Shown here piece after piece: positions 20,279 through 57,299 of a stretch of 64,000 bases of DNA. Positions within the stretch are counted from its first letter, which is position 1; each line of letters starts with the position of its first letter. The notes beneath the pieces were generated by a model. The model ran no database searches, was not told the DNA's origin, and saw nothing but the letters and a program-made list of their open reading frames with translations. Source of the stretch: a virus. Taxonomy: Duplodnaviria > Caudoviricetes. Where the stretch lies: IMG/VR virus record IMGVR_UViG_3300023218_000062; one strand, given 5' to 3'. The position numbers were made by a program, and so were the translations under genes.

Positions 20279-20899
20279 ATGAGTAGACGTAGAGACCCTA
20301 GATTAAAAAAAGCACATGAAGAAATAGAATTTGATCAGAGTATGGTCAGAGAACTCATGCGCTGTTCTACTGATCCAAAGTATTTTATAAAAAATTATAT
20401 CAAGGTTAAACACCCCAAAAGGGGTAAAATTCCTTTTGCATTGTATGACTATCAGGAAGAAATGGTAGATCTTTATAATAGTGATGATGATGTAATTATT
20501 ATGAGTGCCAGACAAACAGGTAAAACCGAATCAATTTGTGCCTATCTTCTTTGGTATGCAATATTTAATGAAGATGTAACAGTTTTGGTAGTATCTAATA
20601 ACTCTACTAATGCGATGGAAATTATTTCAAAAGTTCAATATGCATATAAAGAATTGGATAATTGGATTAAACCCGGAATTGATGATGATTCATGGAACAA
20701 GCACGAATGTAAATTTGATAATGGCTCAAGGATAGTTTCTACTACTACCACTGAAGATTCTGGCCGAGGTATGGCGATATCGTTATTGTATTGTCATCAT
20801 AAAGATTCTACTGTTACTGTACGAGATAAATTGACTGGCGAGGTTAAAGAGATTACACTAGAAAAGCTTTATGATGATTTGTCTAATGGAAAAGAGTGA
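20279..20899 (+). CDS. terL: Terminase large subunit, piece 1 (171-aa N-extein + 35-aa split-intein N-fragment)
   Basis: Walker A ARQTGKT; ...GRGMAISLLY then intein block A CHHKDSTVTVRDK.TGE.KEITLEKLYDDL from nt 20792. Confidence 0.92.
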   Translation: MSRRRDPRLKKAHEEIEFDQSMVRELMRCSTDPKYFIKNYIKVKHPKRGKIPFALYDYQEEMVDLYNSDDDVIIMSARQTGKTESICAYLLWYAIFNEDVTVLVVSNNSTNAMEIISKVQYAYKELDNWIKPGIDDDSWNKHECKFDNGSRIVSTTTTEDSGRGMAISLLYCHHKDSTVTVRDKLTGEVKEITLEKLYDDLSNGKE

Positions 20900-22526: not shown

Positions 22527-23481
22527 TAGATATGAAATATTAACACCAAATGGATGGGAAGATTTTTTAGGAGTAACAAAAAATCAAAAAGATTTTGAAT
22601 CTATAGAAATAGAGACTAAATCCGGAAAAACAATTCACTCAACTAAAAATCATAGACATTGTTCAAAATCTGGTGAATATATTCCGGTTAATGAATTTAA
22701 AGAGAATGACGAAATTCATACTACCGAGGGATTAGAAAAAATAATACATATTACAGAAAAAAATCTCAGTGAGACTTATGATATATTTAAAACTGATTCT
22801 AATACTGTAATTGTGAATAAAGTATACACCCATAATTGTGACGAACTCGCATTCGTTAAGTCCAGTATACAGGAAAAGTTCTGGACATCTATATCTCCAA
22901 CTTTGGCTACGGGAGGAAAGTGTATAATATCTTCTACTCCAAATGGAAACTCAAATTTATTTGCAGAATTATGGCGGGGAGCAAATAATGAGATAAATTC
23001 GTTCAAATATAAGCATGTTCCATGGGATGCCCCACCGGGTAGGGATGAAGAATTTAAACGTCAGCAAATAGGGAAGATCGGTAAAAGAAAATGGTATCAA
23101 GAGTATGAGTGTTGCCATCCGACCTCGTTAATAGAGTTGAGCGACAATGATGAACGCATGTTTGTTAAAGTACCAATTTCTTTAGCATATGAGTGTCTAC
23201 GCAACAATAAAGATATATTTAATTTATCACCACCGTGCCTGACTGGAAAATATGTCATTTCTCCATTAGATGGAAATAAGTATTGTAGAAAAAACGGTAG
23301 ATTTTTGATGCACCTTAAGGAAAATGGATATATATCATATGAAGATTTTTTTGAAAGTTTATTCCCCCAGCACAAAAAAGTCTGTTCCTATTGTAGAAAA
23401 ACAGCTTCTTTCAACAATTCTACCATGAGTTATTTACGAACATGTGGGGATCGTGTATGTGTTGGAAAAGAAACATCTTAG
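22477..23481 (+). CDS. terL: Terminase large subunit, piece 2 (intein-1 C-fragment + 91-aa middle extein + intein-2 N-fragment)
   Basis: YEILTPNGW..F.G, T.NH, YDI...VYTHN|CDELAFV (Walker B), SSTPNG, WYQEYE|CCHPTSLIEL (second block A at nt 23110). Confidence 0.9.
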   Translation: MIAGNKNTQKQSLVENNRYEILTPNGWEDFLGVTKNQKDFESIEIETKSGKTIHSTKNHRHCSKSGEYIPVNEFKENDEIHTTEGLEKIIHITEKNLSETYDIFKTDSNTVIVNKVYTHNCDELAFVKSSIQEKFWTSISPTLATGGKCIISSTPNGNSNLFAELWRGANNEINSFKYKHVPWDAPPGRDEEFKRQQIGKIGKRKWYQEYECCHPTSLIELSDNDERMFVKVPISLAYECLRNNKDIFNLSPPCLTGKYVISPLDGNKYCRKNGRFLMHLKENGYISYEDFFESLFPQHKKVCSYCRKTASFNNSTMSYLRTCGDRVCVGKETS

Positions 23482-23538: not shown

Positions 23539-24684
23539 ATGAATAACTTGGCGTTCAATGATAATAACTGGAAAATAAAATCAATCAATGGCTATGAATC
23601 TTTTACAGGAATAGCTAATATGGGAAGTAAGAAAATTTATGAAGTAAACTTTTCTGATAATACTAAAATTAAGGTTACTAAACACCACAAATTCATTAAT
23701 ACGAACCTAGATGTGATTGAAGTTATTAATTTAAAATCAGGAGACCAACTATTATCAACAAATAGCAATGTTGTTAAAATAGTCAACGGCATACATAAAA
23801 CAGATGAAAAAACAGACGTATACGATGTAATTGAGTCTTCCAGTAATATGTTTTTTTTGAATGGTGTATTAAGTCACAATTGTCGCTTTTTATCAGAAGA
23901 TCATACTCTTATTGATACCATGATCATCAACAACATTGAAAATGAAATGGATGAGAAATATAAGGATAACGGCGGAGACCCACCAGTAGCATTCAAGATT
24001 GGAGATCTTGAATTCTTTAAGAAGATAAATAAATCCATGGCATATTTAGTGTCTGTTGACGTTGCATCAGGATCAGGAAGTGACTTTTCTGTTATTGAAG
24101 TAACGGAATTTCCGAGTATGGAACAGGTGTTGGAATTTAGATCTAATAACACAAATGAAAAATTTTTATATTCCAGACTTAAGAATATTCTCCTATTTTT
24201 GCAACAAAATAGTAAAGAAGTCTATTTCTCTGTAGAGAATAATGGATTGGGTGCAAGTATATTGGCATTGTATGAATATGATGAATCACCACCGCAAAGC
24301 GCATACCTCATTTCTGATAGTAACAACAAGAGGCTAGGTCTTTCAATGTCTGAAACAACTAAACGTACAGCTAGTATGAAACTTAAAAATATGATTGAAA
24401 CAAGATCATATAAATTTTATTCTAAACAAATAATTAAAGAACTAAAGAGCTATACGCGTCAAGGCGCCAACTTTAAGGCAGAGGTGGGATCTACTGATGA
24501 CACTATATCAGCATTATTAATCCTAATGAGAATGTTAGAAGAAATGGCTGACTATAATCCATATGCGTTCGATAAGATTTATAATATAAAAGGACAGGAT
24601 GATAAACAGGAAGAATTTGATGAAGAATTTGTAGACGATCCTAAGACACTAGATGATATGCCGATGCCTATTAGTATAGCCTGA
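23539..24684 (+). CDS. terL: Terminase large subunit, piece 3 (intein-2 C-fragment + 267-aa nuclease C-extein)
   Basis: WKIKSINGYESF.G, T..H.F, VYDV...NGVLSHN|CRFLSEDHTLI; nuclease motifs VSVDVASGSGSDFS, VENNG, TDD.+SA. Confidence 0.9.
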   Translation: MNNLAFNDNNWKIKSINGYESFTGIANMGSKKIYEVNFSDNTKIKVTKHHKFINTNLDVIEVINLKSGDQLLSTNSNVVKIVNGIHKTDEKTDVYDVIESSSNMFFLNGVLSHNCRFLSEDHTLIDTMIINNIENEMDEKYKDNGGDPPVAFKIGDLEFFKKINKSMAYLVSVDVASGSGSDFSVIEVTEFPSMEQVLEFRSNNTNEKFLYSRLKNILLFLQQNSKEVYFSVENNGLGASILALYEYDESPPQSAYLISDSNNKRLGLSMSETTKRTASMKLKNMIETRSYKFYSKQIIKELKSYTRQGANFKAEVGSTDDTISALLILMRMLEEMADYNPYAFDKIYNIKGQDDKQEEFDEEFVDDPKTLDDMPMPISIA

Positions 24685-28566: not shown

Positions 28567-30144
28567 ATGGTCAATTTACCAAACAAGGTGGCTACTATAG
28601 TTATAGAAGATTATGTCCATGCAACTATTGCGGGTTTACAAATAGAAGATACTAATGACTTGGTTGCCAAATATTCTGTATATACTAAGAATTACTTTTT
28701 TAATCCTGATTATCAAATGAACAGATGGGATGGTAAATTTAAATTTTTCACAAATGGAAACCGAACATATCTTAGCATTTTATTAGATATAGTAGATGAT
28801 TTAAAATCCAATGGCTATACGATAAAGATAAAAAACAATAGACATGATTTTAAGTTAGATATTATGCCGGTAAATAAAGATTACTTTTCTGAATATGGAT
28901 GGGAGCTAGGTGATCATCAAGTTAAAGCCATAAACAATATTTTAGAGGCACATGATGGAATAATACGAGTAGGTACCGGTGGTGGAAAAACATTAATCAC
29001 TGCGGTTCTTGCTGACATATATAGTAAAAAACAATTAAAAGTTATAGTAGTAGTACCAAATAAAGACCTTATACATCAGACCAAAGATGAAATTGCTTCA
29101 TTTAAGTTGGATGTTGGCGCATATTATGCAGATGAAAAAACAATTGATAAACCAATTGTTGTATCTACATGGCAATCATTGGTTAAAAACCCTAAACTAT
29201 TATCAACTTTTCATGCGGTCATGGTAGATGAATGTCATGGATCACAAGCACAGAGTTTATTTAAGCTTCTTTCTAATCAAGGAAAGAACATTCCGGTTAG
29301 AATAGGGCTGACTGGCACTATTCCAGAGCATATGTGTGATAAGTTGAAAGTTTTTTCAGTGTTGGGGCCAGTAAGGGCAAAAGTTCCTGCGAATTATTTA
29401 ATGAAGATAGGTTGGTTAGCTCAACTTAAACTTCTTATGGTAGAATATAAGGAAGATTTTACCGAAGAATGGAATAGATTCAAAGGGATTGCTGGGACGG
29501 AAGAAGATAAAAAAATGTCATATACTGAATTTAAAAACCATAAATTATTTCCTGCATATGAAAATGAAAAATCGTATTTAATACGAAATCCCGAAAGATT
29601 TGACAGTATTGCAAGTCTTGTTCAGTGTTTGACAAAAGAATATGGAAACTCTTTTATCTTAGTGAATACTATAGATTTTGGAAATAAATTACAAAAAATA
29701 CTAGGAGAAAATGCAATATTCATCAGTTCTAAAATAAAAGATAGAAAACCCATTTATGAAGCATTTAAGACGGAAAATGAAATTATTGGTATAGCTACAT
29801 ATAATCTTGCTAGTACTGGCCTCAATATACCTAGAATATTTAATATGTTTCTAATTGATGGTGGCAAATCTTCTATTAAAATTGTGCAGTCTATTGGGAG
29901 AGGGCTTAGAAAAGCTAAAGACAAGGAAAGCGTAAACCTTATAGATATATACTCAAATGTTAAATTTTCTATGCGACATGCTAGAAAAAGAAAAAAAATA
30001 TACAAAGAAGAAAAATATTTTTTTGACCATATAAAAGTAGATCATGAAAATAAAGAAATGACTGTACAAAAATGTTTAAAGAAAGTAAAATTGCTTAATC
30101 GCGACCCTAAAAAAGAAGAACTGGAAAAGGAAGTATTAGAATAA
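28567..30144 (+). CDS. uvsW: UvsW-like SF2 DNA helicase
   Basis: GTGGGKT, MVDECH, GLTGT, STGLNIPRI, QSIGRGLR. Confidence 0.9.
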   Translation: MVNLPNKVATIVIEDYVHATIAGLQIEDTNDLVAKYSVYTKNYFFNPDYQMNRWDGKFKFFTNGNRTYLSILLDIVDDLKSNGYTIKIKNNRHDFKLDIMPVNKDYFSEYGWELGDHQVKAINNILEAHDGIIRVGTGGGKTLITAVLADIYSKKQLKVIVVVPNKDLIHQTKDEIASFKLDVGAYYADEKTIDKPIVVSTWQSLVKNPKLLSTFHAVMVDECHGSQAQSLFKLLSNQGKNIPVRIGLTGTIPEHMCDKLKVFSVLGPVRAKVPANYLMKIGWLAQLKLLMVEYKEDFTEEWNRFKGIAGTEEDKKMSYTEFKNHKLFPAYENEKSYLIRNPERFDSIASLVQCLTKEYGNSFILVNTIDFGNKLQKILGENAIFISSKIKDRKPIYEAFKTENEIIGIATYNLASTGLNIPRIFNMFLIDGGKSSIKIVQSIGRGLRKAKDKESVNLIDIYSNVKFSMRHARKRKKIYKEEKYFFDHIKVDHENKEMTVQKCLKKVKLLNRDPKKEELEKEVLE

Positions 30145-30145
30145 T

Positions 30146-30640
30146 ATGATGTTTTTAGATGAAAATAATTATCCTATAGTATTAGAGAGCATCGATATTC
30201 CTACTGAGTCGGAATATTTTTGGTCTTTTTCTTTAAAAGAAAAGGATTTTATGCTAAATGAAATAATAACGTTTGAGGAAATGGAAATATCTTCACTACT
30301 TGTATCTATAATGGGGTATGTAATAGAATTACCAACAAATTGGAATATATTAATATATTCACAAGAAACCTCACAACTGGATATATTAGAAGTGCATGAA
30401 TTGACTAAAGGTAATTATGATGCGGTAGTGTATAACCATAAACTAGATTACGTAGAATCTGGAATGGGGTTAGTTAGAGTATTGGACTACTGTCCTTCTA
30501 CTAAAATACGAACACCCTCATTACATAAGAGTACAATGCTATGTCATCCCATTGGTCCAACACATTGGATATGCGTGTCACCAACAGATAACTACAATAA
30601 ATATTTAAAGAATAGTGTAATAGGAGATCTCTATTTATGA
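30146..30640 (+). CDS. Hypothetical protein
   Basis: 164-aa ORF coupled to uvsW. Confidence 0.6.
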   Translation: MMFLDENNYPIVLESIDIPTESEYFWSFSLKEKDFMLNEIITFEEMEISSLLVSIMGYVIELPTNWNILIYSQETSQLDILEVHELTKGNYDAVVYNHKLDYVESGMGLVRVLDYCPSTKIRTPSLHKSTMLCHPIGPTHWICVSPTDNYNKYLKNSVIGDLYL

Positions 30641-31128
30641 ATAAGAAAACAAAGAAAAAGTTTACAGTTCCTGAGTTTAAAACTTGGTTAACCGGAATTA
30701 TGCAATTTCAGAATAAAGACTGGTCGCCTAATCGTGAGCAATGGGAAGAAATATATTCTAAGATAATGTACCTGAAAGAGCCAGTTACCATGGAAAAACT
30801 ATCATTAACTGATGATGCTCTGGATGAAATTAATAATATAGTGTATTATCATATTACAGACGCTTTAAAGGAAAAAATTTCTCAGCAGCTTCAACAAGCA
30901 CAACCACAACCACATACGCAACCTATAATGGGCCAACAAACTCCTATACCAAATCCAAACCCAAATCCAAATCCAAATTTACAACCTGATTCTAATTTAG
31001 CCAATGTCTCTCTAAGCGAATTAAAGAAACAGGCCGAAGAAAAGGCGAGTGCTATTGGAAGTCAACAATCCTCCCATAAACTGCCAGATCAAATCGAAAG
31101 TAATAGCATCCCAGAAGATTATGTATAA
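30637..31128 (+). CDS. Hypothetical protein with Q/P/N-rich linker
   Basis: 163-aa ORF, ATGA overlap; (PN)n repeat. Confidence 0.6.
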   Translation: MNKKTKKKFTVPEFKTWLTGIMQFQNKDWSPNREQWEEIYSKIMYLKEPVTMEKLSLTDDALDEINNIVYYHITDALKEKISQQLQQAQPQPHTQPIMGQQTPIPNPNPNPNPNLQPDSNLANVSLSELKKQAEEKASAIGSQQSSHKLPDQIESNSIPEDYV

Positions 31129-31142
31129 TAAATAATATCCAC

Positions 31143-31715
31143 ATGGGAAGAAGCATATACTATGAAAAATTAAATTTTAGGGATTTATGGATTGACGGGA
31201 AAAGCTCCATAAATATAAATGGGCTGTATGATAAAATTTTGACAGGAGATTTAAATTTTTTTGGCTCTGATGTTGTGTCAGAAAACGCCAAACAAGAAAT
31301 TATTAGGTTTGCTTCGTTGTCAAATATAGAAATGCCTAAAGTTACTGTAAAATCTAGTCCCACCAATAATTCTCTTAACACTAGTTTTGCCATTCCGAAA
31401 AGTTATATGGATGCAGATATTCAAAAAATAATCATGCAAAGTTTTAAAAAACGGCATAATATTTCTAATATGAGTAATAAAGAAAAAGAAAAAAGATTAT
31501 ATAGAATTGCAGATGAAATCGAAAAATATAACGAGTTAGGTATGTATGATGTACTTCGATGTATGATATATATAATTGATACTTTTAAAGAGAATAATGT
31601 AATATGGGGCCCCGGAAGAGGGAGTGCATGTTGTTCGTATATATTATATTTGTTAGAAGTACATGATATAGATAGTTTTTATTTTGAATTAGATATTAAG
31701 GAATTCTTGAGGTAA
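31143..31715 (+). CDS. DNA polymerase III alpha-like fragment 1 (GRGS-motif half)
   Basis: RL..IADEIE...KENNVIWGPGRGSACCSYILYLLEVHDIDS..FELDIKEFLR aligns with DnaE GPGRGS...DLDPL.FDLLFERFL. Confidence 0.8.
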   Translation: MGRSIYYEKLNFRDLWIDGKSSININGLYDKILTGDLNFFGSDVVSENAKQEIIRFASLSNIEMPKVTVKSSPTNNSLNTSFAIPKSYMDADIQKIIMQSFKKRHNISNMSNKEKEKRLYRIADEIEKYNELGMYDVLRCMIYIIDTFKENNVIWGPGRGSACCSYILYLLEVHDIDSFYFELDIKEFLR

Positions 31716-31855
31716 CATCTCTAATCTAACATCTTATCTTACATATTCACTAAATGTCAAGTAAAAAATGTATTACTAAATACTATAGAATATAGACAAA
31801 TAAACAAAGAGAGAGAGATCTTTTTGGGTTTGGAAAGAAAAGGAGAATATTATAT

Positions 31856-32153
31856 ATGGCTACTAGAAAAACAACCAGTGTTAAAGGCGAAATAGTAGAT
31901 TTTGATCTGCTGGAAACTAAGCAAAAAATAGAACAATAAACCTAGAATTATGGACGTGCAGAAAAGAGAAGATTTTGTTCATAGACGGAGGAGAAAAAGT
32001 AGACGTTCTTCCATGGATAACATTAAAGATAATAAAAATCCGAGTCCAGAAATAAAAAAAGAAGAAACAAAAACTAAAACCACGCCAAAAAATACTAATA
32101 AAAAGAGAACTATTGTTAAAAAAGATACATCAAAAAATGAGGAAAATAAATGA
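31856..32153 (+). pseudogene. Small basic protein split by a +1 frameshift near 31932-31939
   Basis: Strong aaggag RBS and ATG 31856 give 27 codons then TAA; removing one base joins it to ORF 31950-32153. Confidence 0.45.
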
Positions 32154-32470
32154 AATCGATTAATTTAATTGAAGATAAAATAGCATTTACGTTTTTAGAA
32201 AATACGAGTAATAGGGGATTTTCCAAAAAAACAGATGCAGGACTTATTGTGCAAGAGAATGAAGAGCATCAAATAAATCAAGCAAGATGGGGAAAAATAC
32301 TTAAGTGCTCGCCAAATGTTACAGAAGTAAAAAAATCTCAGTTCATATTAATAGAGCCAATGGAATGGACGCGAGCTATAAAATTGGATGAAGTTTCCGA
32401 TGAAGAATTCTGGATAACTAGTGAAAGCAAAGTGTTAGCTGTAAGTGATACAGAACCAGAACTAATTTGA
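32150..32470 (+). CDS. GroES-like co-chaperonin (T4 gp31-type)
   Basis: I..+EDKI, KT.AGLIV, WGKILK.SPNV.EVKK..FIL pattern; 106 aa. Confidence 0.65.
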   Translation: MKSINLIEDKIAFTFLENTSNRGFSKKTDAGLIVQENEEHQINQARWGKILKCSPNVTEVKKSQFILIEPMEWTRAIKLDEVSDEEFWITSESKVLAVSDTEPELI

Positions 32471-33450
32471 TAAATATTATTATAAAAAAAACAAATATGA
32501 CATTTTTAATTTTAATGATATGTGGCACGTTACTTATAGCTAGTGCAGCTGTATTTTTTAGTGTGCTTGGATTAGTGCAAACCTTTTCAGAAACCGCCGT
32601 TTATTGGGGTACTGCAATTGAGGTTGCGAAACTAATATTAGCGTCCTTTTTATATAGATTTTGGGATAAAACTACTAAAATATCTAAAGTAATTATAATT
32701 ATTTTAATAATGTTTTTGATGACTATAACTTCATTAGGGATATATGGTCATATAATAACATCTTACCAAGAAGGCAATTTACAAGTAACAAATCAGAATA
32801 TAAAATTAGAAACTGCCCAAAACAGAGTTGATAGGACATTAGAAAAAATAGAAATAATAAATGAAAGAATAGACGACAATAAATCTCGTATACAAGATAT
32901 AGATGATGAAATATCTAGGGTCCCTGATAATTTTGTTACCGTTAGGAGGGAATTAATACAAGAAAGAGAACCTGAAAAAACCGAACTTAGAAATAGAATA
33001 GATGAATTGTTTAGTGAACGAGAAAAATTATTTAATGAATTAGAAAAGCAGCAGGAAAATATTTCTGTATTACGAATAGAAACGGGAGAAGTGGAACAGA
33101 AAGTGGGTCCTATAATATTTGTTGTAGAAACTCTAGGAGCTACAGGAGAAAAAGCCGTATTTTGGTTTGTTCTTATCATTGTACTTTCATTTGACCCTGC
33201 CGCAGTGGCATTAACTGTATATACTAATAAAGTAGCTATGTCGTTAAAAGAGAATAAGCAGCCCCCCTACGCAATAACATCTACGGTTAATGAAGAAAAC
33301 AAATCTGATAATGAAGGGCTGAAACAGTTTTTTACTGGAGTGAATGATTCTATAAAGGAAAACAATAAACGGCTAAAACAAATGCAAGAAACATTCGATA
33401 AAGATAAAAAACGAAAAAAACTAATTGACGAGGTAAAAAACAGAAGTTGA
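32467..33450 (+). CDS. Multi-pass membrane protein with coiled-coil
   Basis: Three N-terminal hydrophobic helices, long coiled coil, further TM with FDPAAV. Confidence 0.6.
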   Translation: MINIIIKKTNMTFLILMICGTLLIASAAVFFSVLGLVQTFSETAVYWGTAIEVAKLILASFLYRFWDKTTKISKVIIIILIMFLMTITSLGIYGHIITSYQEGNLQVTNQNIKLETAQNRVDRTLEKIEIINERIDDNKSRIQDIDDEISRVPDNFVTVRRELIQEREPEKTELRNRIDELFSEREKLFNELEKQQENISVLRIETGEVEQKVGPIIFVVETLGATGEKAVFWFVLIIVLSFDPAAVALTVYTNKVAMSLKENKQPPYAITSTVNEENKSDNEGLKQFFTGVNDSIKENNKRLKQMQETFDKDKKRKKLIDEVKNRS

Positions 33451-33508
33451 AATTTTCCCCTCAAGCATGTATTATTCCACCATAATTTAAATATGGAATA
33501 ATACATGC
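33448..33508 (+). promoter_or_regulatory. Perfect 15-bp inverted repeat burying RBS and ATG of clamp-loader gene, with internal promoter
   Basis: gcatgtattattcca (33465-33479) / tggaataatacatgc (33494-33508); TTGAAA-N16-TATTAT (33448-33475); TAAATA in loop. Confidence 0.65.
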
Positions 33509-34446
33509 CTACAAAACTTTGGTGGACCAAACATAGACCGGACACATTAAAAAATTTTATATTTCAAAACACTGATCAGGAAAGACAAATTAATAAATTT
33601 ATATCAGATGGGGATATACCCCATCTTCTTTTTTATGGTGTCAGAGGCTCAGGAAAAACCACTTTGGCTTATATATTAATAAATCATTTGGTTGAGAAGG
33701 AGAATATGTCAGATGTATTAGTGATCAATGGCTCATTAGATGGTAAAATAGATGGCATACGCACTAAACTCATAAACCATGTAACTTCTGTTCCTATGGG
33801 TGACAAAAAGATTGTATTTATTGATGAAGCAGATGGGCTATCATTGAGCGCCCAAAATTCACTTAGAGGTATATTAGAAAAATATGAATCTAATTCAAGA
33901 GTAATATTTACTGCAAATTACATTAATAAATTGACGCCCGAATTAAGATCAAGATTCTCAGAATTTAGATTTTCTAAACTTAGCGCGTCTAAAATATTAG
34001 AATACTGTATCGATATATTGGATTCTGAAGGTGTAGATATTGAAAATAAGAGTAATATCGAAGTACTTAAAACTCTTTCTAAAGCATATTCCCATGATTT
34101 TCGGCAACTAATAACTGCACTACAAAATGCCACTGATGATAATAAATTATGTGCCAGTGCGGTTGATGATGGCACATTGAGCGACAAATTAGATCTAATA
34201 GATTTAATGAATAAAGATAATTGGATACAGGCTAGAGAACTTGTGGCGGAGAATTTTTCGGATGAAGAACTTGTAGAGGTTTATCGATTCTTATATGATT
34301 ACTTATACGAAATAGAAAAGTTTGCAGATAACAATAAATGGAAGCGGGGGATTATTATAATATCAGATTATATGTATCGCCATGCAATACACCCTGACCA
34401 AGAAGTAAACTTTGCAAGCTGTCTAATAAAACTATCGGAGATATAA
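33505..34446 (+). CDS. gp44: Sliding-clamp loader AAA+ subunit (T4 gp44-like)
   Basis: W..KHRP.T, GVRGSGKTT, FIDEADGL, LRSRF (SRC-like). Confidence 0.9.
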   Translation: MPTKLWWTKHRPDTLKNFIFQNTDQERQINKFISDGDIPHLLFYGVRGSGKTTLAYILINHLVEKENMSDVLVINGSLDGKIDGIRTKLINHVTSVPMGDKKIVFIDEADGLSLSAQNSLRGILEKYESNSRVIFTANYINKLTPELRSRFSEFRFSKLSASKILEYCIDILDSEGVDIENKSNIEVLKTLSKAYSHDFRQLITALQNATDDNKLCASAVDDGTLSDKLDLIDLMNKDNWIQARELVAENFSDEELVEVYRFLYDYLYEIEKFADNNKWKRGIIIISDYMYRHAIHPDQEVNFASCLIKLSEI

Positions 34447-34451
34447 TAGCC

Positions 34452-34754
34452 ATGAGATTGACAGAAGAACAGGTAAAAAACGAATTAAAGGAAGTAAGTA
34501 AATTTGCAGATAATGCAGAAAAATTATCGTGGCAACGCAAATATAAAAAATTACAAAAATTAATAGATGAACTAAAACCATATGAAGAAAAAATGCTTCA
34601 ATTATATCAAGAGAGAATGCCTATTATGGATAAAATACATATGTTGCGTCAAATGATGGTAAATGAATGTATTCATCCTAAAAACTATCTAACACATAAA
34701 GGAACCTATATACACTGTAAATTTTGTGATAAAATAATAGCGCCCAAGAGATAA
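34452..34754 (+). CDS. Hypothetical protein
   Basis: 100 aa, C-terminal C.H...CKFC. Confidence 0.55.
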   Translation: MRLTEEQVKNELKEVSKFADNAEKLSWQRKYKKLQKLIDELKPYEEKMLQLYQERMPIMDKIHMLRQMMVNECIHPKNYLTHKGTYIHCKFCDKIIAPKR

Positions 34755-35183
34755 ATGGATATATTTGAACAAATTTCTAAAATAGATTCACAGGATTTTA
34801 AAGCTATCAAGGATGAGAAATTTTTTAAAGATTTTTTTCCGCTGCTGGTGCTTCGTTGGTATTCAGGTACTAAAGATCCTGTCCAAATTCAACTCTTAAA
34901 TTCATTAGTGAATCCTATGATATTTTCTCTTCATAAGGAAAAGACACTTTTATATTATCTTTTCTGCTGTTGCTCTTCAGGAAAGGGCAAACGTTATTCA
35001 TGGATAAAACGACCGAAAAAGGTTAATGTAGATGTTGTAAGAATGATATGTTCGTATTACGGGATTAGTACCAATGAAGCTAAATATGCTATCAAAAATT
35101 TAAACAAAGAAGATTTACTTGAAATATTAGATTATATGGATTATGATAATAAAAAGTATAACAAAATAAAAAAAGCAATATGA
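34755..35183 (+). CDS. Clamp loader small subunit (T4 gp62-like)
   Basis: F.PLLVLRWYSG...Y+W+K...YYG+S..EA; adjacent to gp44. Confidence 0.55.
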   Translation: MDIFEQISKIDSQDFKAIKDEKFFKDFFPLLVLRWYSGTKDPVQIQLLNSLVNPMIFSLHKEKTLLYYLFCCCSSGKGKRYSWIKRPKKVNVDVVRMICSYYGISTNEAKYAIKNLNKEDLLEILDYMDYDNKKYNKIKKAI

Positions 35184-35869
35184 TACCAATCTATTATCAA
35201 TGTGACTTCTGTGATAAGACATTTGTAAATGAAAAGAACTTAAAAAAACATAATTGTGATTTTAAAGATCGTTATGAATTTATCGTAAATACCCCAGTTG
35301 GCCAATCTATGTATAGTTTATATATTTTTTGGTTGAGATCTAATGCAAAAAATACGAAATATGTTGACAAGCATACTTTTATACATTCTATACATTATAA
35401 GCCGTTTAAAAGATTTATGGATTTTTGCAAGAAAAAATCTATACCAAACAAAAAAACATATATAAAAATATGTAATAGTTATAATTTATCTCCTAAAGAT
35501 TGGTCTAATGAAAGTACGTATGAAACTTTTTTAGAAATATATGATGAATTGATACCTGTAAACAAACAAATAGATATATCACTTGAAACATTATATCAGC
35601 TTTCGGATGCTTTAGAGATAGAAATAAATAACGTGTTTACGGAATTGGATCCTCGGGATGTTGCAAAACTGATTAAGAGTAGAAAAATATCTCCATGGTT
35701 ATTTTTAAACAGCAAAAAGTTTAAAGAGTTCTTAATTAATTATGCTAGTGCTGATATAAGAAACCATATACAAAAATCAACAAATACAGAACGATGGAAG
35801 GAAATATTTAATAAAAACTCTAAAAAACGTAATACAGTTCGCAAAATAATTAAACAGTTAGGGTTGTAA
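35180..35869 (+). CDS. Hypothetical protein with N-terminal C2H2-like zinc finger
   Basis: CDFCDKTF....L.KH.C. Confidence 0.6.
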   Translation: MIPIYYQCDFCDKTFVNEKNLKKHNCDFKDRYEFIVNTPVGQSMYSLYIFWLRSNAKNTKYVDKHTFIHSIHYKPFKRFMDFCKKKSIPNKKTYIKICNSYNLSPKDWSNESTYETFLEIYDELIPVNKQIDISLETLYQLSDALEIEINNVFTELDPRDVAKLIKSRKISPWLFLNSKKFKEFLINYASADIRNHIQKSTNTERWKEIFNKNSKKRNTVRKIIKQLGL

Positions 35870-35975
35870 TATATTCTTATATTATACTATATGGATGGGT
35901 GGTTTTCTTCTTGACAATTTATTTTTATCGTTAACGATAAATAAGTAATGAATAAATATTTTTAATTTATACTAA

Positions 35976-36611
35976 ATGGTTAACTGTCAATCATCCTCAT
36001 ATGAAATAAATAAAACTGATTCTGGAACTGATCCTATATTACTATTAAAGGGTAAGATAGACCAAGATTCACTTGATATAACCTTACTCGGGAAGAGACG
36101 TAGAGAATATGGTGAAATTTTTAATGAAAATTTACTTCATCTTCTAGAAAATTTTGCTTCACCTGAAGATTCTTCAAATCCGGGAAATCCAGATACATCG
36201 GTAACATCAGGAAATTTATTAGAAAATCCTACGGTTGGCCAGTTTTGGTATAATTCGACAGTTCATCATTTATATTATTATACCGGCACTAAATGGAAAT
36301 CATTATCCCAATCAGGTGATGTGGCAGGAAATTATGGGACTATCCTTGATGGTGAACAAATACCACAACCAGTTAGTCCTGTTACAGGATATATTTTTCC
36401 ATACTCGGAATGTACGTGGGTAGTGTCTCCAACAGGATATGATTCTAATATAGATTTTATGAAATGTTTTACTGATTTAGCAGCAAACGTTGTGTTTAAA
36501 TTTAGAAAAAATGGGTCTTCTACCCTGTTTAGTGGGATTGCGAACTATTTGATAATAGGAATTCGGAACGATAGCAATGCTGGCGAGCAAATAATGCCAC
36601 AAGATCCATAA
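35976..36611 (+). CDS. Tail/baseplate-associated structural protein (paralog 1)
   Basis: [35 protein letters not shown].+SP shared with 36851 and 39072. Confidence 0.6.
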   Translation: MVNCQSSSYEINKTDSGTDPILLLKGKIDQDSLDITLLGKRRREYGEIFNENLLHLLENFASPEDSSNPGNPDTSVTSGNLLENPTVGQFWYNSTVHHLYYYTGTKWKSLSQSGDVAGNYGTILDGEQIPQPVSPVTGYIFPYSECTWVVSPTGYDSNIDFMKCFTDLAANVVFKFRKNGSSTLFSGIANYLIIGIRNDSNAGEQIMPQDP

Positions 36612-36668
36612 TATTCAGATGCGTAAAAGTTATAAATATAACTTGATTATAAATAATTTTTTAAAATA

Positions 36669-36842
36669 ATGTACATATTAGTTAACACAAAAAATGTTAT
36701 AGTAGCAAGCTCAAATAGAAAACCCAGCGAAGAAATGGCGTCTGCCAACAATCAGCGGGTATATGAATTGGATGACTCCGAGTTTAATACGGAAATGATA
36801 GGATCAGTGTTAGAAGATTTTATATTGGTAGAGGAAAACTAA
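36669..36842 (+). CDS. Small hypothetical protein (57 aa)
   Basis: ATG 36669 to TAA 36842 after late promoter 36631; below ORF-track cutoff. Confidence 0.45.
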   Translation: MYILVNTKNVIVASSNRKPSEEMASANNQRVYELDDSEFNTEMIGSVLEDFILVEEN

Positions 36843-36850
36843 AAATTTCA

Positions 36851-38497
36851 ATGTCTGAATATAAACTAGATTTTACTGACATACAAACAGATTCTATATT
36901 TGTAGATTCTCGTGATATTGATACAGAGAGTGTTGATATAACTCTCTTTGGGTTTAAACGATTAAATTATGGAGAAGAATTAAATGAGAATTTTGTACAT
37001 CTCTTAGAAAATTTTGCATCAGAAGAAGACCCCTCTAATCCCGGTAACCCAGATACGTCTAAAACTAATTCTATTATTTCTCCCAATGGCGATCCTTTAT
37101 TAAAAAATGGAAAGCAAATAGAGGGTCAAATTTGGTTTAATAAATCTAATTTTTTACCATACATATATCATGATAATGAATGGAGACCTTTAGATGCTGT
37201 TGGTGAAGAAATAACGGCAAATTGGGGCCAAATATTAAATGGAGAACAGATACCAAGACCTGCAACAAATGACGGATATGTTTTTCCTTACTCAGAATGT
37301 AGTTGGATTGTATCTCCTTTTAATCAGTTGGATACTTTAGAAACTATGGTATGTAGAACCGATGAAAATGCTAATGTTACCATGGAATATGTATTTTCGG
37401 GGTCGGGCTCTCCAGAATCTGCTGTAGCAAATTATATGATTGTAGGGATTACAGGTAATAATAATTTAGGTGATATTCAAGATCCTAATCCACCCCCTAC
37501 GCCTACTCCTTCAGGAAGCATGGGGGCGACGCCTACACCTTCGGCAAGTGTAGGGGCCTCACCTACGCCTACACCTACGCCTACACCCGATTCATTAACT
37601 CTGACTATTAATGATCCGTTCTCTGCATCATGTGCTGCTAGCTCTGGCAGTCAATGTATTGCTACAGATCAAATAGTCTTAGGAACGGATTATAATATCG
37701 CTGGTGGTAGTGGTAACTTTTCTTATAATTGGAGTTATTTTGGCGGGGATGTGTTTAGTATATCTAATCCGTCAAGCCCTAATCCTAGTCTTAGTAGAAA
37801 ATTGTTCACCGGATTAACCGGATCAGGCATCGGAACTATTCAAGTTTCTGACCTAGAAACAGGAGAAACCACATTTGGATCTTTTACATTTAATACTATA
37901 CATAACGAATCATTGGCACCAACTCCAAGCCAGACTCCTACTTCTACACCTGCACCATCAAATAGTGCAGATGTGACACCAACACCCACGCCTACACCAT
38001 CAAATAGTGCGGGTGTAACTCCAACTCCTACACCATCAATTAGTGCAACTCCTACGCCCACTCCTACGCCCACTCCTACACCATCAGAAATATTGAGTGG
38101 GACCATTTCGGATGGTGCAATAACTACAGTGGCGGTGGTCACAGATAATCCAGCAACATTATCAATATCATTATTAACTGATGGTTCAATCGACGGAAAC
38201 CCATCAAATAGTACTACGGGAGCAAACACATGGGCAATATTTAATTCCGGCTTTGATGCGTCGGACTTTAATTATCAAATAATTGATATACAACAAGCAA
38301 ATGTATTATCATTTACAGGGCCGTCAGAAGGTTCTGTTGGAAGTTTATCGAGTGACTTAATATACAGTGCAGAAATGGGCGGTAGCTCAGTAGACCGAAA
38401 CTTAACTATAATCTTAGATATCGTAGATGTTAATAATTCCACTAATGTTGGACGGATAAATTTAACCTTAACGACTGAACCCTCTACTGCTCCATAA
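36851..38497 (+). CDS. Tail/baseplate-associated structural protein with Pro-Thr-Ser linkers (paralog 2)
   Basis: Same N-terminal module; PTPTP tracts near 37490-37590 and 37915-38085. Confidence 0.6.
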   Translation: MSEYKLDFTDIQTDSIFVDSRDIDTESVDITLFGFKRLNYGEELNENFVHLLENFASEEDPSNPGNPDTSKTNSIISPNGDPLLKNGKQIEGQIWFNKSNFLPYIYHDNEWRPLDAVGEEITANWGQILNGEQIPRPATNDGYVFPYSECSWIVSPFNQLDTLETMVCRTDENANVTMEYVFSGSGSPESAVANYMIVGITGNNNLGDIQDPNPPPTPTPSGSMGATPTPSASVGASPTPTPTPTPDSLTLTINDPFSASCAASSGSQCIATDQIVLGTDYNIAGGSGNFSYNWSYFGGDVFSISNPSSPNPSLSRKLFTGLTGSGIGTIQVSDLETGETTFGSFTFNTIHNESLAPTPSQTPTSTPAPSNSADVTPTPTPTPSNSAGVTPTPTPSISATPTPTPTPTPTPSEILSGTISDGAITTVAVVTDNPATLSISLLTDGSIDGNPSNSTTGANTWAIFNSGFDASDFNYQIIDIQQANVLSFTGPSEGSVGSLSSDLIYSAEMGGSSVDRNLTIILDIVDVNNSTNVGRINLTLTTEPSTAP

Positions 38498-38568
38498 TGA
38501 TAATCTTAAATTTTAATCAAATATAATAAATATAAATATAAATGTAGTGACAAAAAAGGAGAACTAAA

Positions 38569-39024
38569 ATGGAATTAATAATTTTAGGAGTAGGAGCAGT
38601 AATTATGGGCCTTGTGGTATTTGCCTTTGTACGTAGTGGAAATGATAATAATTCGGAAAATATTACAGAAGTTGATGATACTTTTGTTTCATTTTCTTCG
38701 TTTGAACAACTTCCAAATGAAAATGTTCAAACTAGTATAAAATTTGTAAAAGATGGTAGGGTTTTGAAATCTTCTATAGTGTTGGGAAATATTTTAACCG
38801 ATGAAGATATTGGTTCTTGGGGAATTGATTCTTTTAATAATACACCAAGTTTTGCTCTAGTTGACATCGAAGGAAATTTATCTGGGCCTAGAAATGGAAT
38901 ATTAGATTCTACTATTGAATGGTTTATAACACCAGCACAAAGAAGTAGCGCTATAATTGAATTAACCGATGGAGTTACGACTAAGCGATTTAGGATTATA
39001 TTAACATCGCGGGTTATCGGATAA
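38569..39024 (+). CDS. Hypothetical membrane-anchored protein
   Basis: N-terminal TM; aggag RBS; late promoter 38531. Confidence 0.55.
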   Translation: MELIILGVGAVIMGLVVFAFVRSGNDNNSENITEVDDTFVSFSSFEQLPNENVQTSIKFVKDGRVLKSSIVLGNILTDEDIGSWGIDSFNNTPSFALVDIEGNLSGPRNGILDSTIEWFITPAQRSSAIIELTDGVTTKRFRIILTSRVIG

Positions 39025-39071
39025 TTATTAAAGGATTTACAATTATATAATTGTAGATTATAATATATAAA

Positions 39072-40448
39072 GTGATTACATATAATATAAATTTTACAGA
39101 TTCGACCAAAGAGCCTATACAAGTCGAAGAAAAAGGTCTAAATGACTCTTTTAGCGTAAAATTTCCCGGACGTATAAAACTTGAATGGGGAGAAGATGTA
39201 AATGAAAATTTATTACATCTTTTAGAAAAATTTGCGGTATCAGCCGAATCTACTGAAAATATAAATGTACCAGATGATGCCGCTTCTAATCAAATATTAG
39301 CTAACCCTGTAGAAGGACAATTATGGTTTAACAAAACAAATACTAGATTATATTCCTATAATGGTACTGAATGGATACCATATACAATAAATGGCCAAGA
39401 ATATGGTGCGAACTGGGGGCAAATAAATCACGGTGAACAAATACCATTACCCGTTTCCCCTGCAGGGTACAATTTCACATATGAAGAATGTATATGGACA
39501 ATATCACCATTTACATATTTTGATGGCTTTGATTATGTTCAGTGCTTTTCTGACATAATAGATTCTACGGTTACGATGATATATAAAAATAATTCCGGTG
39601 AAGTAATAGAGGGCGTTGCTAATTATTTAATCGTGGGAATTAGAGGAAATGGAAATTTGGGAGAATTTATTACACCTTTACCAATTCCTTCACCTACACC
39701 TACACCTACATCATCAATAACACCATCAGTAACACCTACTTCTACACCAACACCAACATCAACACCAACACCAACACCATCAAATAGTGCTGGAGTTACT
39801 TCTACACCAACACCAACATCTACACCATCAAATAGTGCTGGAGCTACTTCTACACCAACACCAACATCTACACCATCAAATAGTGCTGGAGCTACTTCTA
39901 CACCAACACCAACACTAACACCAACACCAACACCATCAAATAGTGCTGGAGTCACTTCTACACCAACACCGACACCTACACCATCAAATAGTGCTACACC
40001 AACTCCAACACCTACTTCTACACCTACACCAACACCATCTACTTCTATCACTGATGATGGAAACGTAGTAGAAGGCCCTACTGATATAACTAATATAGAA
40101 GATGCGGGCGTTACGATATCAACAATAGAGTTTTCATCAACCGGCGGAATTTTCACAAGCAATTCAGCAAACTCTAATTGGTTAAATGGTCCTTTCCGTG
40201 CTGGCGAAGATGGGTCAGATTTTACATATACAATATCCCCAGACGTGGATGGAACAGATAATGGTGCTTCATACCCACCACTTTCGGGTGATTTATCATC
40301 TACAATTTCGTTTATTTCTCAAACTAACACGAATGGAAACGGATCATTGACTGCAACTATGACAATAACTGGCCCTAGAAATAGTGGGGTATTTAATATA
40401 TCCGTATTTGCCGGAAGTAGCGGTGGCGGCGGCGGTAACCCAGTATGA
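39072..40448 (+). CDS. Tail/baseplate-associated structural protein with long Pro-Thr-Ser linker (paralog 3)
   Basis: Same N-terminal module; about 120 aa PT/S tract with 48-nt tandem units near 39685-40040. Confidence 0.6.
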
Positions 40449-41203
40449 AGAAAATACAAAATGTGAAAACACGTCAATCTAGTAAACAAGAAAATGATAA
40501 AATACTGGCTCTTAAATCTAAAAAAAAATATTATCTTAAGAATACTGACTGGACCCAAATAAATGATGTAAGAATTAAAAACAATGATGAAATAAAGAAA
40601 TGGCGTAAACGTTTAAGAGATTTTGACATAGATGACCTCTCATATGAACAGTCTGAAAAAGAATTAGAAAAAATTATATCTGAGATGCCAATGCCAATTA
40701 TAGGAAAAAAGGTTGACACTGTTGACAAAGAAAAAGAGTACAATAGTGACGATATATCTACTGTATATAAAGAATTAAAAACGATAAAGGAGAATATATC
40801 TACCATATATAAAGAACTGGATAACGATAATGAAATAATAGAATTAGAAGAACAGGAATTTAGAAATGTAATCTTAAAATTGTTTACTGAAGATGCCAAT
40901 AAATTATTAATGGAAAATGGAATATTGGAATATAACCTGATGACTATTTTATTGGAAGAAGCGATAGATAGACAATTTTCAGATGATAGCTATGGACCAT
41001 TATTAGATCAATATTTGGAATCTTTAAATTCGTTATCGTTGGAAGAAATTATTAGCAATTGCAGGAGTTTCTTCAAAAATATTAATGGTTTGTATACTAA
41101 CATAGCTAAACAACGAGCAAGGATGTATAATATGTCTATAGACTCTTTAAATAATTGGTGTGTAGAAAATGGACATAGATATAGATGTTACAACAACGAC
41201 TAA
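40445..41203 (+). CDS. Tail fibre assembly chaperone-like protein
   Basis: L.NTDWTQ+.D......W..R..LRD motif of phage tail assembly chaperones. Confidence 0.5.
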
Positions 41204-41750
41204 CCCGCCTGATATATTCAATAATATAACATCTGCTTCTATAGTAGAAAATGGAGAACTAAAGCGACATAATGTTGGATATTATTTTCAGAATATACCA
41301 ATAGATCCTCACACGGGATTATCAGCAATACCATATAAAAAGGCATTAGATTTTGATTATTTTAAAATTGATATAATTCACTTGAAACTTTTGGATTATT
41401 TTGATTCAAAAAAAGAATTAATACAGTACATGCACCGCAAACCAAAATGGGAAATGTTATGGGATAGAAATATAGTTCCTAAACTATTTCATTTTTCAAA
41501 ATCATATGAATTGCTAAATAAAATTAGGCCCAAGAGTATATTAGAAATATCTGATTGTTTAGCTCTTATACGGCCCGGCAAAAGAAAATTAATAAATAGG
41601 TATTTGAAAGAGAAAAATAAAAATAAAATTAGGATAGAATTATATAAGAAAGAGCAGGCAAGCGATCTTCGAAAATCGCACGCTTTGCCATATGCATATT
41701 TAATAATTGCACAATTAAATTTAATAAGGGATGGTAAATATGAAACTTAA
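41169..41750 (+). CDS. DNA polymerase III alpha-like fragment 2 (catalytic-aspartate half)
   Basis: Starts MDIDID (DxD), H.+G, FKIDII (third Asp), LALIRPG, KSHA..YA. Confidence 0.8.
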   Translation: MDIDIDVTTTTNPPDIFNNITSASIVENGELKRHNVGYYFQNIPIDPHTGLSAIPYKKALDFDYFKIDIIHLKLLDYFDSKKELIQYMHRKPKWEMLWDRNIVPKLFHFSKSYELLNKIRPKSILEISDCLALIRPGKRKLINRYLKEKNKNKIRIELYKKEQASDLRKSHALPYAYLIIAQLNLIRDGKYET

Positions 41751-42036
41751 AAATATTATGGAACAAGAAAATATATTATTATCTTCTACACAAAAAAAAA
41801 TAATATTAACGATATACATATCGATAACACCGTTACTTGCATTCGAAGAAATACAAGATAGTGAAACAGATATCATTGCTGTGGATTTATTAAATCGATA
41901 TGGTTATATTAATATATATGAAAATGGAGCAGAGTTAACCTCAAAAGGACAAGAGGCGTTAGTGTCATACGGACTGGTTGATGAAAATGGGGAAGTAACA
42001 GATATGGGCCAAAAAATTTTAGATAATTATGAATAA
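41731..42036 (+). CDS. Hypothetical protein (likely start ATG 41740)
   Basis: MKLKNIME N-terminus. Confidence 0.55.
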   Translation: MVNMKLKNIMEQENILLSSTQKKIILTIYISITPLLAFEEIQDSETDIIAVDLLNRYGYINIYENGAELTSKGQEALVSYGLVDENGEVTDMGQKILDNYE

Positions 42037-42503
42037 TAGTCTATAGTTTTAGTAAAATCTACAACATTTTTCTGAAATGTGGCCTTTTCTTTAGGTATTT
42101 TTCGTTTTCTCTTTCTAGTTTTAACTGGATTGTTCATCTCAAAAACAAATACCGGCCCTATTAATCTAGACACATAATCAATAGAGTAGGCTTTTATTAT
42201 TTTTGAAGTAATAAATTCAACACCTTTTTTACAAAACTCTATGGATATAGGGTAATTCTCTTTATTAGTATGGTACCATTCGTTAGCTATCTTGATAATA
42301 TCTAATTCGGAGATTTGTTGAGGATGACATAAATCTAAACAATATGCAGATATATGTCTCTTTGTTACATTGTCTATTATACTTAAATTAATTTCATCAT
42401 TATATTTAATCAACGTAATAAATGGACATCCATCATAATCCTTGGGGTAATCTTCTACAATTATAGGGAAATGGGAATTACTTTTAATTTTAGTTATTTG
42501 CAT
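42027..42503 (-). CDS. Hypothetical protein
   Basis: 158-aa minus-strand ORF not overlapping a + gene. Confidence 0.65.
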   Translation of the reverse strand: MQITKIKSNSHFPIIVEDYPKDYDGCPFITLIKYNDEINLSIIDNVTKRHISAYCLDLCHPQQISELDIIKIANEWYHTNKENYPISIEFCKKGVEFITSKIIKAYSIDYVSRLIGPVFVFEMNNPVKTRKRKRKIPKEKATFQKNVVDFTKTIDYYS

Positions 42504-42566
42504 ATACTTTTCTTTTATAATTATATAATAAAACTATTTATATAACCGTATTGATTTTGAATAAAT

Positions 42567-42956
42567 ATGTGTATAATTATTAGAAGGCTCATAATGTTTA
42601 AAATTTTTCGTTATGAAAATGATATAGAAGCGTCTGAAGATGCACTTGAAAATGAAACTGGCTTCAATGAGGATGAACAGGAACAGCAAGATCATAATTT
42701 TGAAGGCACCATAAGAACGGTAGCCGGAGCCTGTCTAGTGTATAAGAGAAAAGAAACTGGAAATACTTTTGAAGAGTTATGGATTTATTCTATAGATTCT
42801 AGGAACATAAAAATTGAAAATGATATACGTAATAGTATATTAGCAGGGACTGATATAGATCCACAAACGCAAAGATCTCCTGAAGGTGATCAAAGGGCCT
42901 CTACAGAAAGTGTCGGAAATGTTCAGTTTTTACATATAACAGGATTACCAAATTAA
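42567..42956 (+). CDS. Hypothetical protein
   Basis: Acidic ORF of about 120 aa, likely ATG 42594. Confidence 0.55.
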   Translation: MCIIIRRLIMFKIFRYENDIEASEDALENETGFNEDEQEQQDHNFEGTIRTVAGACLVYKRKETGNTFEELWIYSIDSRNIKIENDIRNSILAGTDIDPQTQRSPEGDQRASTESVGNVQFLHITGLPN

Positions 42957-56730: not shown

Positions 56731-57250
56731 GCGTTGCAGGGTGAGGTTAAAACCCTCTCCAAAGCCACAATACATTAGAAGTAACCTAGGCTCGGCTTCT
56801 GTGGCTTTCTGAGGCTTATAGGATGAATCAGAAGTGGCTTTTTGGGGAGAGTAATAAAATTGTTAAGAAATATTTAAAGAATTCGATGATATCGATTGTA
56901 AGCATGACGGACGGGAGTTCGAATCTCCCCTACTCCACCAAAAGTGGATCAATAAGTGCCAGTCGAGGGAAGATCAGGTATCTTTCCAGTATAGCAAACA
57001 AAAAAGCCTAAGACGAGAGAGGTAATGCGTCAGCAATCCCGGAAACGGGGCAATGATTGGTCCACTTCTGATGGGGTAGTACTTGGTTTCGACGGTGTGA
57101 CTGAAGATCGATGGAGAATCGTCAAGAAAGACGCAAAAATCACTTAAAGTAAGTGCAAATGATGATATATTTGCACCGGAAGCACTAGCTGCGTAAGTCC
57201 GGTTGAGGTTTGGGTGGCTCCCCCTCATTACCCAATGAGCCGCCATTTAA
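56731..57250 (+). ncRNA. ssrA: Circularly permuted (two-piece) tmRNA; acceptor piece ends 56940, coding piece starts 57073; tag ANDDIFAPEALAA (57155-57196)
   Basis: T-arm gggag-ttcgaat-ctccc and CTACTCC-A-CCA (to 56940) precede GGGGTAG...TTCGAC (57073); 7-bp acceptor stem with G3:U70; gatcgat/atcgatt P2 helix; tag frame ends LAA-stop; outer ends approximate. Confidence 0.92.
56941..57072 (+). other. 132-nt structured intervening segment of permuted tmRNA
   Basis: Closing helix aagtggatcaat/attggtccactt; hairpins gggaagat/atctttcc, gacg/cgtc, cccg-gaaa-cggg. Confidence 0.75.
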
Positions 57251-57252
57251 GG

Positions 57253-57299
57253 GGCAGGGTGGAAACACCTTGCCTTTTTTAATGCTTTTGTGATATAAT
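57253..57299 (+). terminator. Terminator after tmRNA, overlapped by extended -10 promoter for downstream genes
   Basis: ggcagggtg-gaaa-caccttgcc + T6; TGaTATAAT at 57291-57299. Confidence 0.8.

Follow-up and report, generated by a model that had tools for sequence, protein, structure and literature searches.

Two short genes in the DNA of a virus each resemble a different part of the alpha subunit of bacterial DNA polymerase III (Pol III alpha), and the question raised by this locus is whether their products work together as a single enzyme. The stretch of DNA analysed (referred to as the window) comprises 64,000 nucleotides of the virus record IMGVR_UViG_3300023218_000062 (Caudoviricetes) and corresponds to the T4-like core of a jumbo phage, uncultured and AT-rich (about 32% guanine plus cytosine), whose proteins encoded by the two genes are also on record on a contig of 246,638 bp. 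The two open reading frames (ORFs), named A and B, lie on the same strand and are separated by 9.5 kb that include about a dozen unrelated genes. The analysis described here indicates that A and B are probably the two subunits of a split minimal Pol III alpha core, which would be an accessory DNA polymerase using deoxynucleoside triphosphates (dNTPs) beside the main replicase of the phage.

The product of ORF A contains the palm entry helices and the triphosphate-binding loop W-G-P-G-R-G-S, and its C-terminal end is KEFLR. It matched the Pfam family PF07733 (DNA_pol3_alpha, the NTPase/palm domain) over positions 3-94 of the 260 of the profile, with an expectation value (E) of 3e-10 and 40.6 bits (cut-off 23.9), and it was aligned end to end with the PHROGs family phrog_11127 ('DNA polymerase', 171 positions, E 5e-35). 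Residues 120-189 of A were aligned by phmmer to residues 323-392 of E. coli DnaE (2hnh), and a comparison carried out with hhalign placed the profile of the A family on DnaE 285-395 with a probability of 97.6%. The AlphaFold2 (AF2) model obtained from the family alignment, with a mean predicted local distance difference test score (pLDDT) of 88, was superimposed with the VIA structural alignment over residues 86-190 on DnaE 279-393 (4jom; Z 12.6, root-mean-square deviation 2.6, 105 residues).

The product of ORF B carries the catalytic Asp strand, the remaining palm and a condensed finger region, and begins with MDIDIDV from an ATG of its own that overlaps the end of the preceding gene. It was matched end to end by phrog_11778 ('DNA polymerase', 197 positions, E 3e-58) and barely over the cut-off of 22 by the Pfam family PF17657 (DNA_pol3_finger; E 2e-5, 24.2 bits). 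A phmmer search of B against the sequences of the Protein Data Bank (PDB) gave spurious matches only (a PI3K regulatory subunit, E 0.019), and hhalign of the B family against DnaE 380-800 paired the correct motifs (KFD, RPG), yet with a probability of just 5%. The placing of B in the Pol III alpha family is based on the Pfam, PHROGs and structural results because comparison of the sequence alone fails. The AF2 model of B from its family alignment reached a mean pLDDT of 94, and residues 1-193 were superimposed on DnaE 401-784 (2hnh; Z 10.4, root-mean-square deviation 3.7, 187 residues). In the PDB searches carried out with both models the clear matches were only to Pol III alpha (E. coli, T. 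aquaticus and M. tuberculosis DnaE1), PolC being weaker. 

The position of the break has been established with the E. coli DnaE encoded in NC_000913.3 as reference, in which the surrounding sequence is FERFLN(393)PERVSMPDFDVDF, that is, FERFLN(393)-PERVSM-PDFDVDF. R159-G160-S161 of A correspond to R362-G363-S364 of DnaE, and the protein ends at the equivalent of N393; B starts at the equivalent of DnaE 400/401, with D2 and D4 in the place of D401 and D403. Since A stops at the N393 equivalent and B opens one residue before D401, the break drops only about six linker residues, and it falls exactly between the GS motif and the catalytic DxD, where it had been placed from a reading of the sequence. 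The hallmarks of family C polymerases are present on one chain or the other: the three catalytic Asp, the GS loop and the finger motifs RPG and KSH. D401, D403 and D555 of DnaE are active-site residues, H760 presumably acts as a steric gate that keeps out ribonucleotides, and a role of S759 has also been described (PMC8485763). The motifs that have been kept point to the incoming nucleotide, the metal ions and the base pair being formed.

The two proteins together have 383 amino acids (aa), compared with about 1160 aa for DnaE. The thumb is gone, because the spacing between the DxD and HxGG motifs is 32 aa in B versus 110 in DnaE, and the fingers are condensed by about 85 aa, because 34 aa versus 119 separate RPG from KSH; B then stops about 22 aa past the KSH motif. 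These spacings, together with the retention of the third Asp (K66/D68), of R135-P-G and of K169-S-H171, agree with the earlier description of the second piece as keeping these motifs but much condensed. A Pfam scan of A and B detected no PHP, clamp-binding, HhH, OB or any further domain, so that the small domain content proposed at first is borne out by the scan and by the boundary positions. As the PHROGs families, which are of like size, were matched end to end, the small size of A and B is a property of the family and not a truncation in the window. A split intein was also excluded, since nothing has been added after the DnaE-393 equivalent or before the DnaE-400 equivalent, either in the window or in 57 aligned relatives.

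The conservation of both halves has been determined in their relatives. The 29 relatives of A (30-75% identical) all end at the same EF[LF][RK] position, and in the 28 relatives of B the residues D2, D4, D6, H34, G37, K66, D68, R135, P136, R168, H171 and Y175 are invariant. Overall identity among the relatives of A or B is 30-80%, and the catalytic residues are still invariant in all of them, so that no sign of decay was found where the first-pass annotation had suggested looking for it. The pattern DxDx[DE] is located near the N-terminus in 100 of 102 representative B modules. An exhaustive search with the B profile in 1.84 billion proteins (E <= 1e-3) recovered 398 cluster representatives, nearly all of about 190 aa and starting at the DxD.

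The distribution of the two genes has been analysed in metagenomic and cultured phages. B is encoded at 62 loci in IMG/VR, and A was also present in all ten of the B-carrying records tested (171-350 kb), at 8.6-19 kb from B in the five records in which the separation was computed. Cultured phages with both halves include Xoo-sp13, XacN1, CM1, RAS14, RsoM2USA, Atu_ph07, Phosso, K64-1 and others; the distance between the genes ranges from about 5 kb (RsoM2USA) to 224 kb (Phosso), and the counts of the halves by genus match. The closest cultured matches to the window pair are those of Xoo-sp13 and XacN1 (35.5% identity for A and 51-55% for B). When the full-length DnaE was used as the query in four complete relatives, the A and B pieces were found and nothing else. 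Co-occurrence, the other check put forward for the pair, is consistent in both collections.

A prediction of the complex between A and B gave an ipSAE of 0.91 versus 0.18 for the best control; the mark set for this test is attained by 58 of 80 solved complexes and by 2 of 110 mismatched pairs. Contacts agreed by at least 96% between runs, and the partner pLDDT was 92. In the predicted interface, residues 151-164 of A (the GS loop) rest on residues 1-8 of B (the Asp strand), and A 173-190 on B 168-178 (the KSH helix). A further contact is formed by A 5-21/78-84, which include the conserved L15, D18 and G19, with B 40-48, which include the conserved F40, Q41, P44 and D46. Formation of a heterodimer is predicted by these models, and the two-chain, non-covalent enzyme initially suggested for the locus has been sustained as far as it can be computed, fused relatives of the two halves being found as well.

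The third contact involves the small domain formed by residues 1-85 of A. L15, D18 and G19 are invariant or almost so in the 29 relatives, and the domain is too short for a PHP domain and without a match: structure matches in the PDB covered none of it, and an atlas search recovered just its own family, apart from rows below threshold. It is common to the A halves of the XacN1-like phages and of metagenomic relatives, and it was not detected in those of the RaK2 and PA5oct types, where tblastn reached only residues 67/110-190 of A.

Three proteins recovered in the exhaustive profile search carry both modules in a single chain; each was seen once, on a short contig, and needs confirmation. The protein P0258 (locus L070, 375 aa) has an A-like region at residues 8-183 (hhalign E 1e-21), a 14-residue linker and a B-like region at 191-372. 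P0288 (L072, 336 aa) is a shorter fusion in which the palm part of A is joined to B, and in P0304 (L071, 398 aa) the order is reversed, with the B-like region (6-195) preceding the A-like one (235-311). Each of them translates as a continuous ORF on its own contig. The gene of P0288 overlaps the stop of a gene for a PF03090 Replicase (a plasmid-type replication initiator), and that of P0304 is followed by an overlapping gene for a PF13481 AAA_25 protein (RecA/DnaB-like ATPase family, helicase-type). These proteins share with the split pair the same minimal A and B modules and the same motifs, and differ from it in being single polypeptides of 336-398 aa on small contigs, with P0288 and P0304 adjoining a Replicase or a helicase-type gene and not a jumbo-phage core. 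Such single-chain forms lend independent genomic support to the proposal that the halves act as one replication enzyme. In a quick tree of B modules with an arbitrary root, the three single-chain forms were placed at three positions among the split forms, two of them on long branches, and no order between splitting and fusion is claimed because of the quick construction, the arbitrary rooting and the long branches of this tree. To our knowledge, single-chain or permuted minimal Pol III forms have no published description. On contig L073, the gene that overlaps a standalone B at its start was considered as an adjacent A half and dropped, its translation having no GRGS or other A features.

The first-pass annotation had allowed that the two genes might already be known, and they are. 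A phage-specific minimal Pol III alpha has been described in the group 2.2 jumbo phages by Iyer, Anantharaman, Krishnan, Burroughs and Aravind in 2021 (Viruses 13:63, section 3.4.1, Fig. 3b; PMC7824862). In this group two distant genes encode the enzyme in pieces, an N-terminal protein that binds NTP and a C-terminal one that binds Mg2+ and the template, and a family B polymerase is present beside it; help in the synthesis of one strand, or repair, was the suggested role (PMC7824862), which is the same functional guess reached for the window. The examples given are XacN1, Xoo-sp13, RaK2, K64-1, 121Q, PA5oct and Atu_ph07 (PMC7824862; PHROG families 11127 and 11778). Judged from its sequence and gene context, the window pair is a further copy of this system: two standalone proteins of about 190 aa encoded by distant genes, with no other Pol III domains in the two ORFs, a T4-like replisome context and a gp23-type capsid. 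It differs from the published examples in coming from an uncultured, AT-rich phage. The present analysis adds to the published description a residue map, the sizes of the deletions, the N-terminal domain of A at the predicted interface, co-occurrence counts, a controlled complex test and the single-chain and order-swapped relatives.

With the bacterial DnaE proteins (E. coli 2HNH and 5FKV; T. aquaticus 2HPI and 3E0D; M. tuberculosis DnaE1 5LEW) the pair shares the Pol-beta-type palm, the GS loop, the Asp triad, RPG and KSH. Unlike them it consists of two chains; it lacks the PHP and thumb domains, the clamp-binding, HhH, OB and tau-binding parts and about 85 aa of the fingers, and its genome most likely encodes another polymerase, the main one. 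In cyanobacteria the halves DnaE-n and DnaE-c carry split-intein segments and are ligated into a full-length chain by protein trans-splicing. The window pair resembles that system in that a catalytic subunit is derived from two distant genes; it differs in having no IntN segment and no IntC segment or Cys/Ser/Thr nucleophile, as B begins M-D-I-D. Because the boundaries of A and B carry nothing extra, an intein is impossible and the halves must stay non-covalent.

It is very likely, from these data, that A and B assemble into a single heterodimeric enzyme whose active site is shared by both chains. A would provide the G-R-G-S loop, which holds the triphosphate of the incoming nucleotide, and the palm entry helices; B would provide the metal-binding D2/D4 strand, the third Asp (D68) and the Lys next to it, and a condensed set of fingers with R135-P-G and K169-S-H171. 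With the GS loop on one chain (A) and both the Asp triad and the steric-gate helix on the other (B), a complete site is available to neither protein by itself, and the active site would be formed only on association of the two chains, without covalent link, intein or splicing. The lineage-specific residues 1-85 of A may supply a second contact surface on B. The main replicase would most likely be a family B polymerase whose gene lies in another part of the genome of about 247 kb, and the minimal Pol III would be an accessory enzyme, probably distributive, that acts with the replication and recombination machinery of the phage in jobs such as primer extension, gap filling or repair synthesis. 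From the retained motifs and the gene contexts we infer template-directed DNA synthesis and an accessory role, and we lean towards a template-directed DNA polymerase, with less assurance than for the heterodimer itself.

Several observations weigh against this proposal. DnaE R390 is aligned by phmmer to a conserved Glu of A (E187), so that the nucleotide-binding pocket is not identical to that of DnaE. Because the pair lacks a thumb as well as the HhH, OB and beta-clamp-binding parts, it may not hold a primer-template stably and may act on another substrate, and no 3'-5' proofreading partner was evident. The result of the complex prediction is to be read as likeness and not as proof, possibly reflecting memory of the model, because the two halves belong to a fold that has been solved as single-chain DnaE; such memory does not account for the contact of A 5-21/78-84, which is in the N-terminal domain without an aligned DnaE counterpart. 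No family B polymerase is encoded in the 64 kb of the window, which is the part of the genome that was searched, and for this phage it is deduced from its relatives for that reason. Finally, neither a biochemical or genetic test of any member of the split minimal Pol III alpha family nor later experimental work on it was found in the literature searched, and the paper on PaBG deals with other Pol III subunits and has no bearing on the pair.

The loss of all the parts with which DnaE grips the duplex (thumb, clamp-binding, HhH and OB) and the lack of conservation of R390 in its place are features that would fit a different enzyme, a nucleotidyl transferase of the Pol-beta fold that is not a template-directed DNA polymerase and serves in template-independent tailing, in primase-like synthesis of RNA or mixed strands, or in making a signalling nucleotide. 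The Pol-beta superfamily includes many non-polymerase transferases. Such an activity is unlikely here, since the finger motifs facing nucleotide and template (R135-P-G and K169-x-H171, including the presumptive steric-gate His) have been kept and are invariant, the fused relatives are located in replication modules next to the Replicase gene or the AAA_25 helicase-type gene, and the window genes themselves lie among those for UvsW, the clamp loader, UvsX and gp32. From the same residues, the template-side motifs and the fusions in replication modules it follows that, among the roles proposed in the first-pass annotation, priming and signalling-nucleotide synthesis found no support; repair is kept among the possible jobs.

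That annotation had also set the pair apart from bulk replication, and the data on relatives favour it. The absence of a family B polymerase from the window would fit the minimal Pol III being the main replicative polymerase of the phage; this is very improbable, because PF00136 (family B polymerase) scored over the Pfam cut-off in all five of the related large records tested, the same has been reported for the group (PMC7824862), and a core of 383 aa without thumb, clamp binding or proofreading is poorly suited to about 247 kb. It is scarcely credible, in turn, that A and B are decaying remnants of dnaE without function, or proteins acting independently of each other, as the short ORFs, the loss of most DnaE domains and the dozen unrelated genes between them might suggest: boundaries are identical in all the relatives, catalytic residues are invariant, both folds are confident, the family extends over hundreds of clusters with strict co-occurrence and single-chain fusions, and the residues of the active site are divided between the chains, so that neither half is complete. 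The accessory split polymerase is retained as the probable explanation. As a separate observation on the family B polymerase, its match in a related viral contig of 244 kb (record L032, G005:C1:90907-94077) is split over two frames of 558 and 367 aa, with the matched parts about 2 kb apart, which points to a gene that is split or carries an inserted element.

Table 1. Coordinates in the window of the two Pol III alpha-like genes, their motifs and other features mentioned in the text.
Feature	Coordinates	Strand	Basis
ORF A, 190 aa, N-terminal half of minimal Pol III alpha	31143..31715	+	PF07733, phrog_11127, hhalign, structure
ORF A residues 1-85, small beta/alpha domain	31143..31397	+	AF2 secondary structure, pLDDT ~71-91
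G156-P-G-R159-G160-S161 codons (= DnaE G359-S364, GS nucleotide-binding motif)	31608..31625	+	W155, G156, G158, R159, G160, S161 invariant in 29 relatives
ORF B, 193 aa, C-terminal half	41169..41750	+	PF17657, phrog_11778, AF2, VIA
D2-I-D4-I-D6 codons (D2/D4 = DnaE D401/D403)	41172..41186	+	Invariant in 28 relatives
K66-I-D68 codons (= DnaE K553-F-D555, third catalytic Asp)	41364..41372	+	K66, D68 invariant; paired with KFD by hhalign
R135-P136-G137 codons (= DnaE R639-P-G)	41571..41579	+	R135, P136 invariant; hhalign
K169-S170-H171 codons (= DnaE K758-S759-H760)	41673..41681	+	H171 invariant; K169 at least 90% conserved
UvsW-type superfamily 2 (SF2) helicase, three genes upstream of ORF A	28567..30144	+	ResIII, Helicase_C, weak UvsW_N; phrog_16, E 2e-66
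Clamp-loader large subunit, between A and B	33505-34446	+	phrog_168, E 7e-70; AAA and DNA_pol3_delta2 Pfam matches
Probable clamp-loader small subunit, between A and B	34755-35183	+	phrog_225, E 2.5e-9
Three adjacent paralogs	35976-36611, 36851-38497, 39072-40448	+	phrog_15511, E ~1e-87 to 1e-93
Weaker paralog of these	59264-61624		
Gene preceding ORF B	40445-41203		Weak resemblance to tail-fibre assembly chaperones
Three paralogous HNH/homing-endonuclease genes	892-2403, 5876-7483, 20871-22526	+	phrog_3339, phrog_559, E 1e-67 to 1e-109
Two ORFs with partial large-terminase matches	22477-23481, 23539-24684		Parts of phrog_36964
Permuted two-piece transfer-messenger RNA (tmRNA)	56880-57196	+	Rfam RF04321, 97.4 bits (gathering score 47), E 1e-17
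tmRNA as called by ARAGORN	56848-57287		ARAGORN

The other genes of the window are in keeping with a T4-like jumbo phage. On the head side a gp23-type head protein and a portal-side adaptor are encoded, and the replication and recombination genes include those for a DnaB-type helicase, a gp32-type single-stranded DNA-binding protein, UvsX, UvsW, a primase and an NAD-dependent ligase; a PhoH gene is also present. The UvsW-type helicase gene is on the same strand as ORF A, and the genes assigned to the clamp loader are located between A and B. A scan of positions 30000-42600 for sigma-70 promoter-like sites gave 59 of them versus 71.3 in shuffled sequences, and eight terminator-like sites were found in the same interval versus 5.3 expected, which is near expectation; both results are uninformative on a co-regulation of the two genes.

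Some additional features of the window are described here in their own right. The three adjacent paralogs of Table 1, located between A and B, start with a common module of about 200 aa; the two longer proteins continue with Pro/Thr/Ser-rich linkers and end in C-termini that diverge. All three are probably virion or fibre proteins. The third of the HNH genes ends within the start of the first of two ORFs that match, each of them, just parts of a large-terminase family, and the large terminase of this phage may be encoded in pieces. The tmRNA detected with the Rfam model was likewise called by ARAGORN, with the tag peptide ANDDIFAPEALAA. Permuted tmRNAs are typical of alphaproteobacteria and of some cyanobacteria and betaproteobacteria, and this one may give a hint of the host of the AT-rich phage.

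For the window itself the outcome is an ordinary one, another copy of a system already described by computation. A broader proposal, which we hold only tentatively and consider doubtful at present, is that the minimal Pol III core of about 340-400 aa, whether in two chains, in one chain or permuted, might be a self-sufficient DNA replicase module, used as a second polymerase in jumbo phages and paired with a primase-type Replicase or a RepA/DnaB-type helicase in small mobile elements. We know of no polymerase of the Pol III alpha family for which activity has been demonstrated with two non-covalently associated chains, or in a protein devoid of thumb, PHP and clamp-binding parts, and the single-chain forms offer simpler constructs for an activity test of the minimal core. 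If the proposal were true, this core would be the smallest working family C polymerase, and a natural case of a polymerase active site that withstands being split, fused again and circularly permuted. Hundreds of T4-like giant phages keep a minimal Pol III beside a family B replicase.

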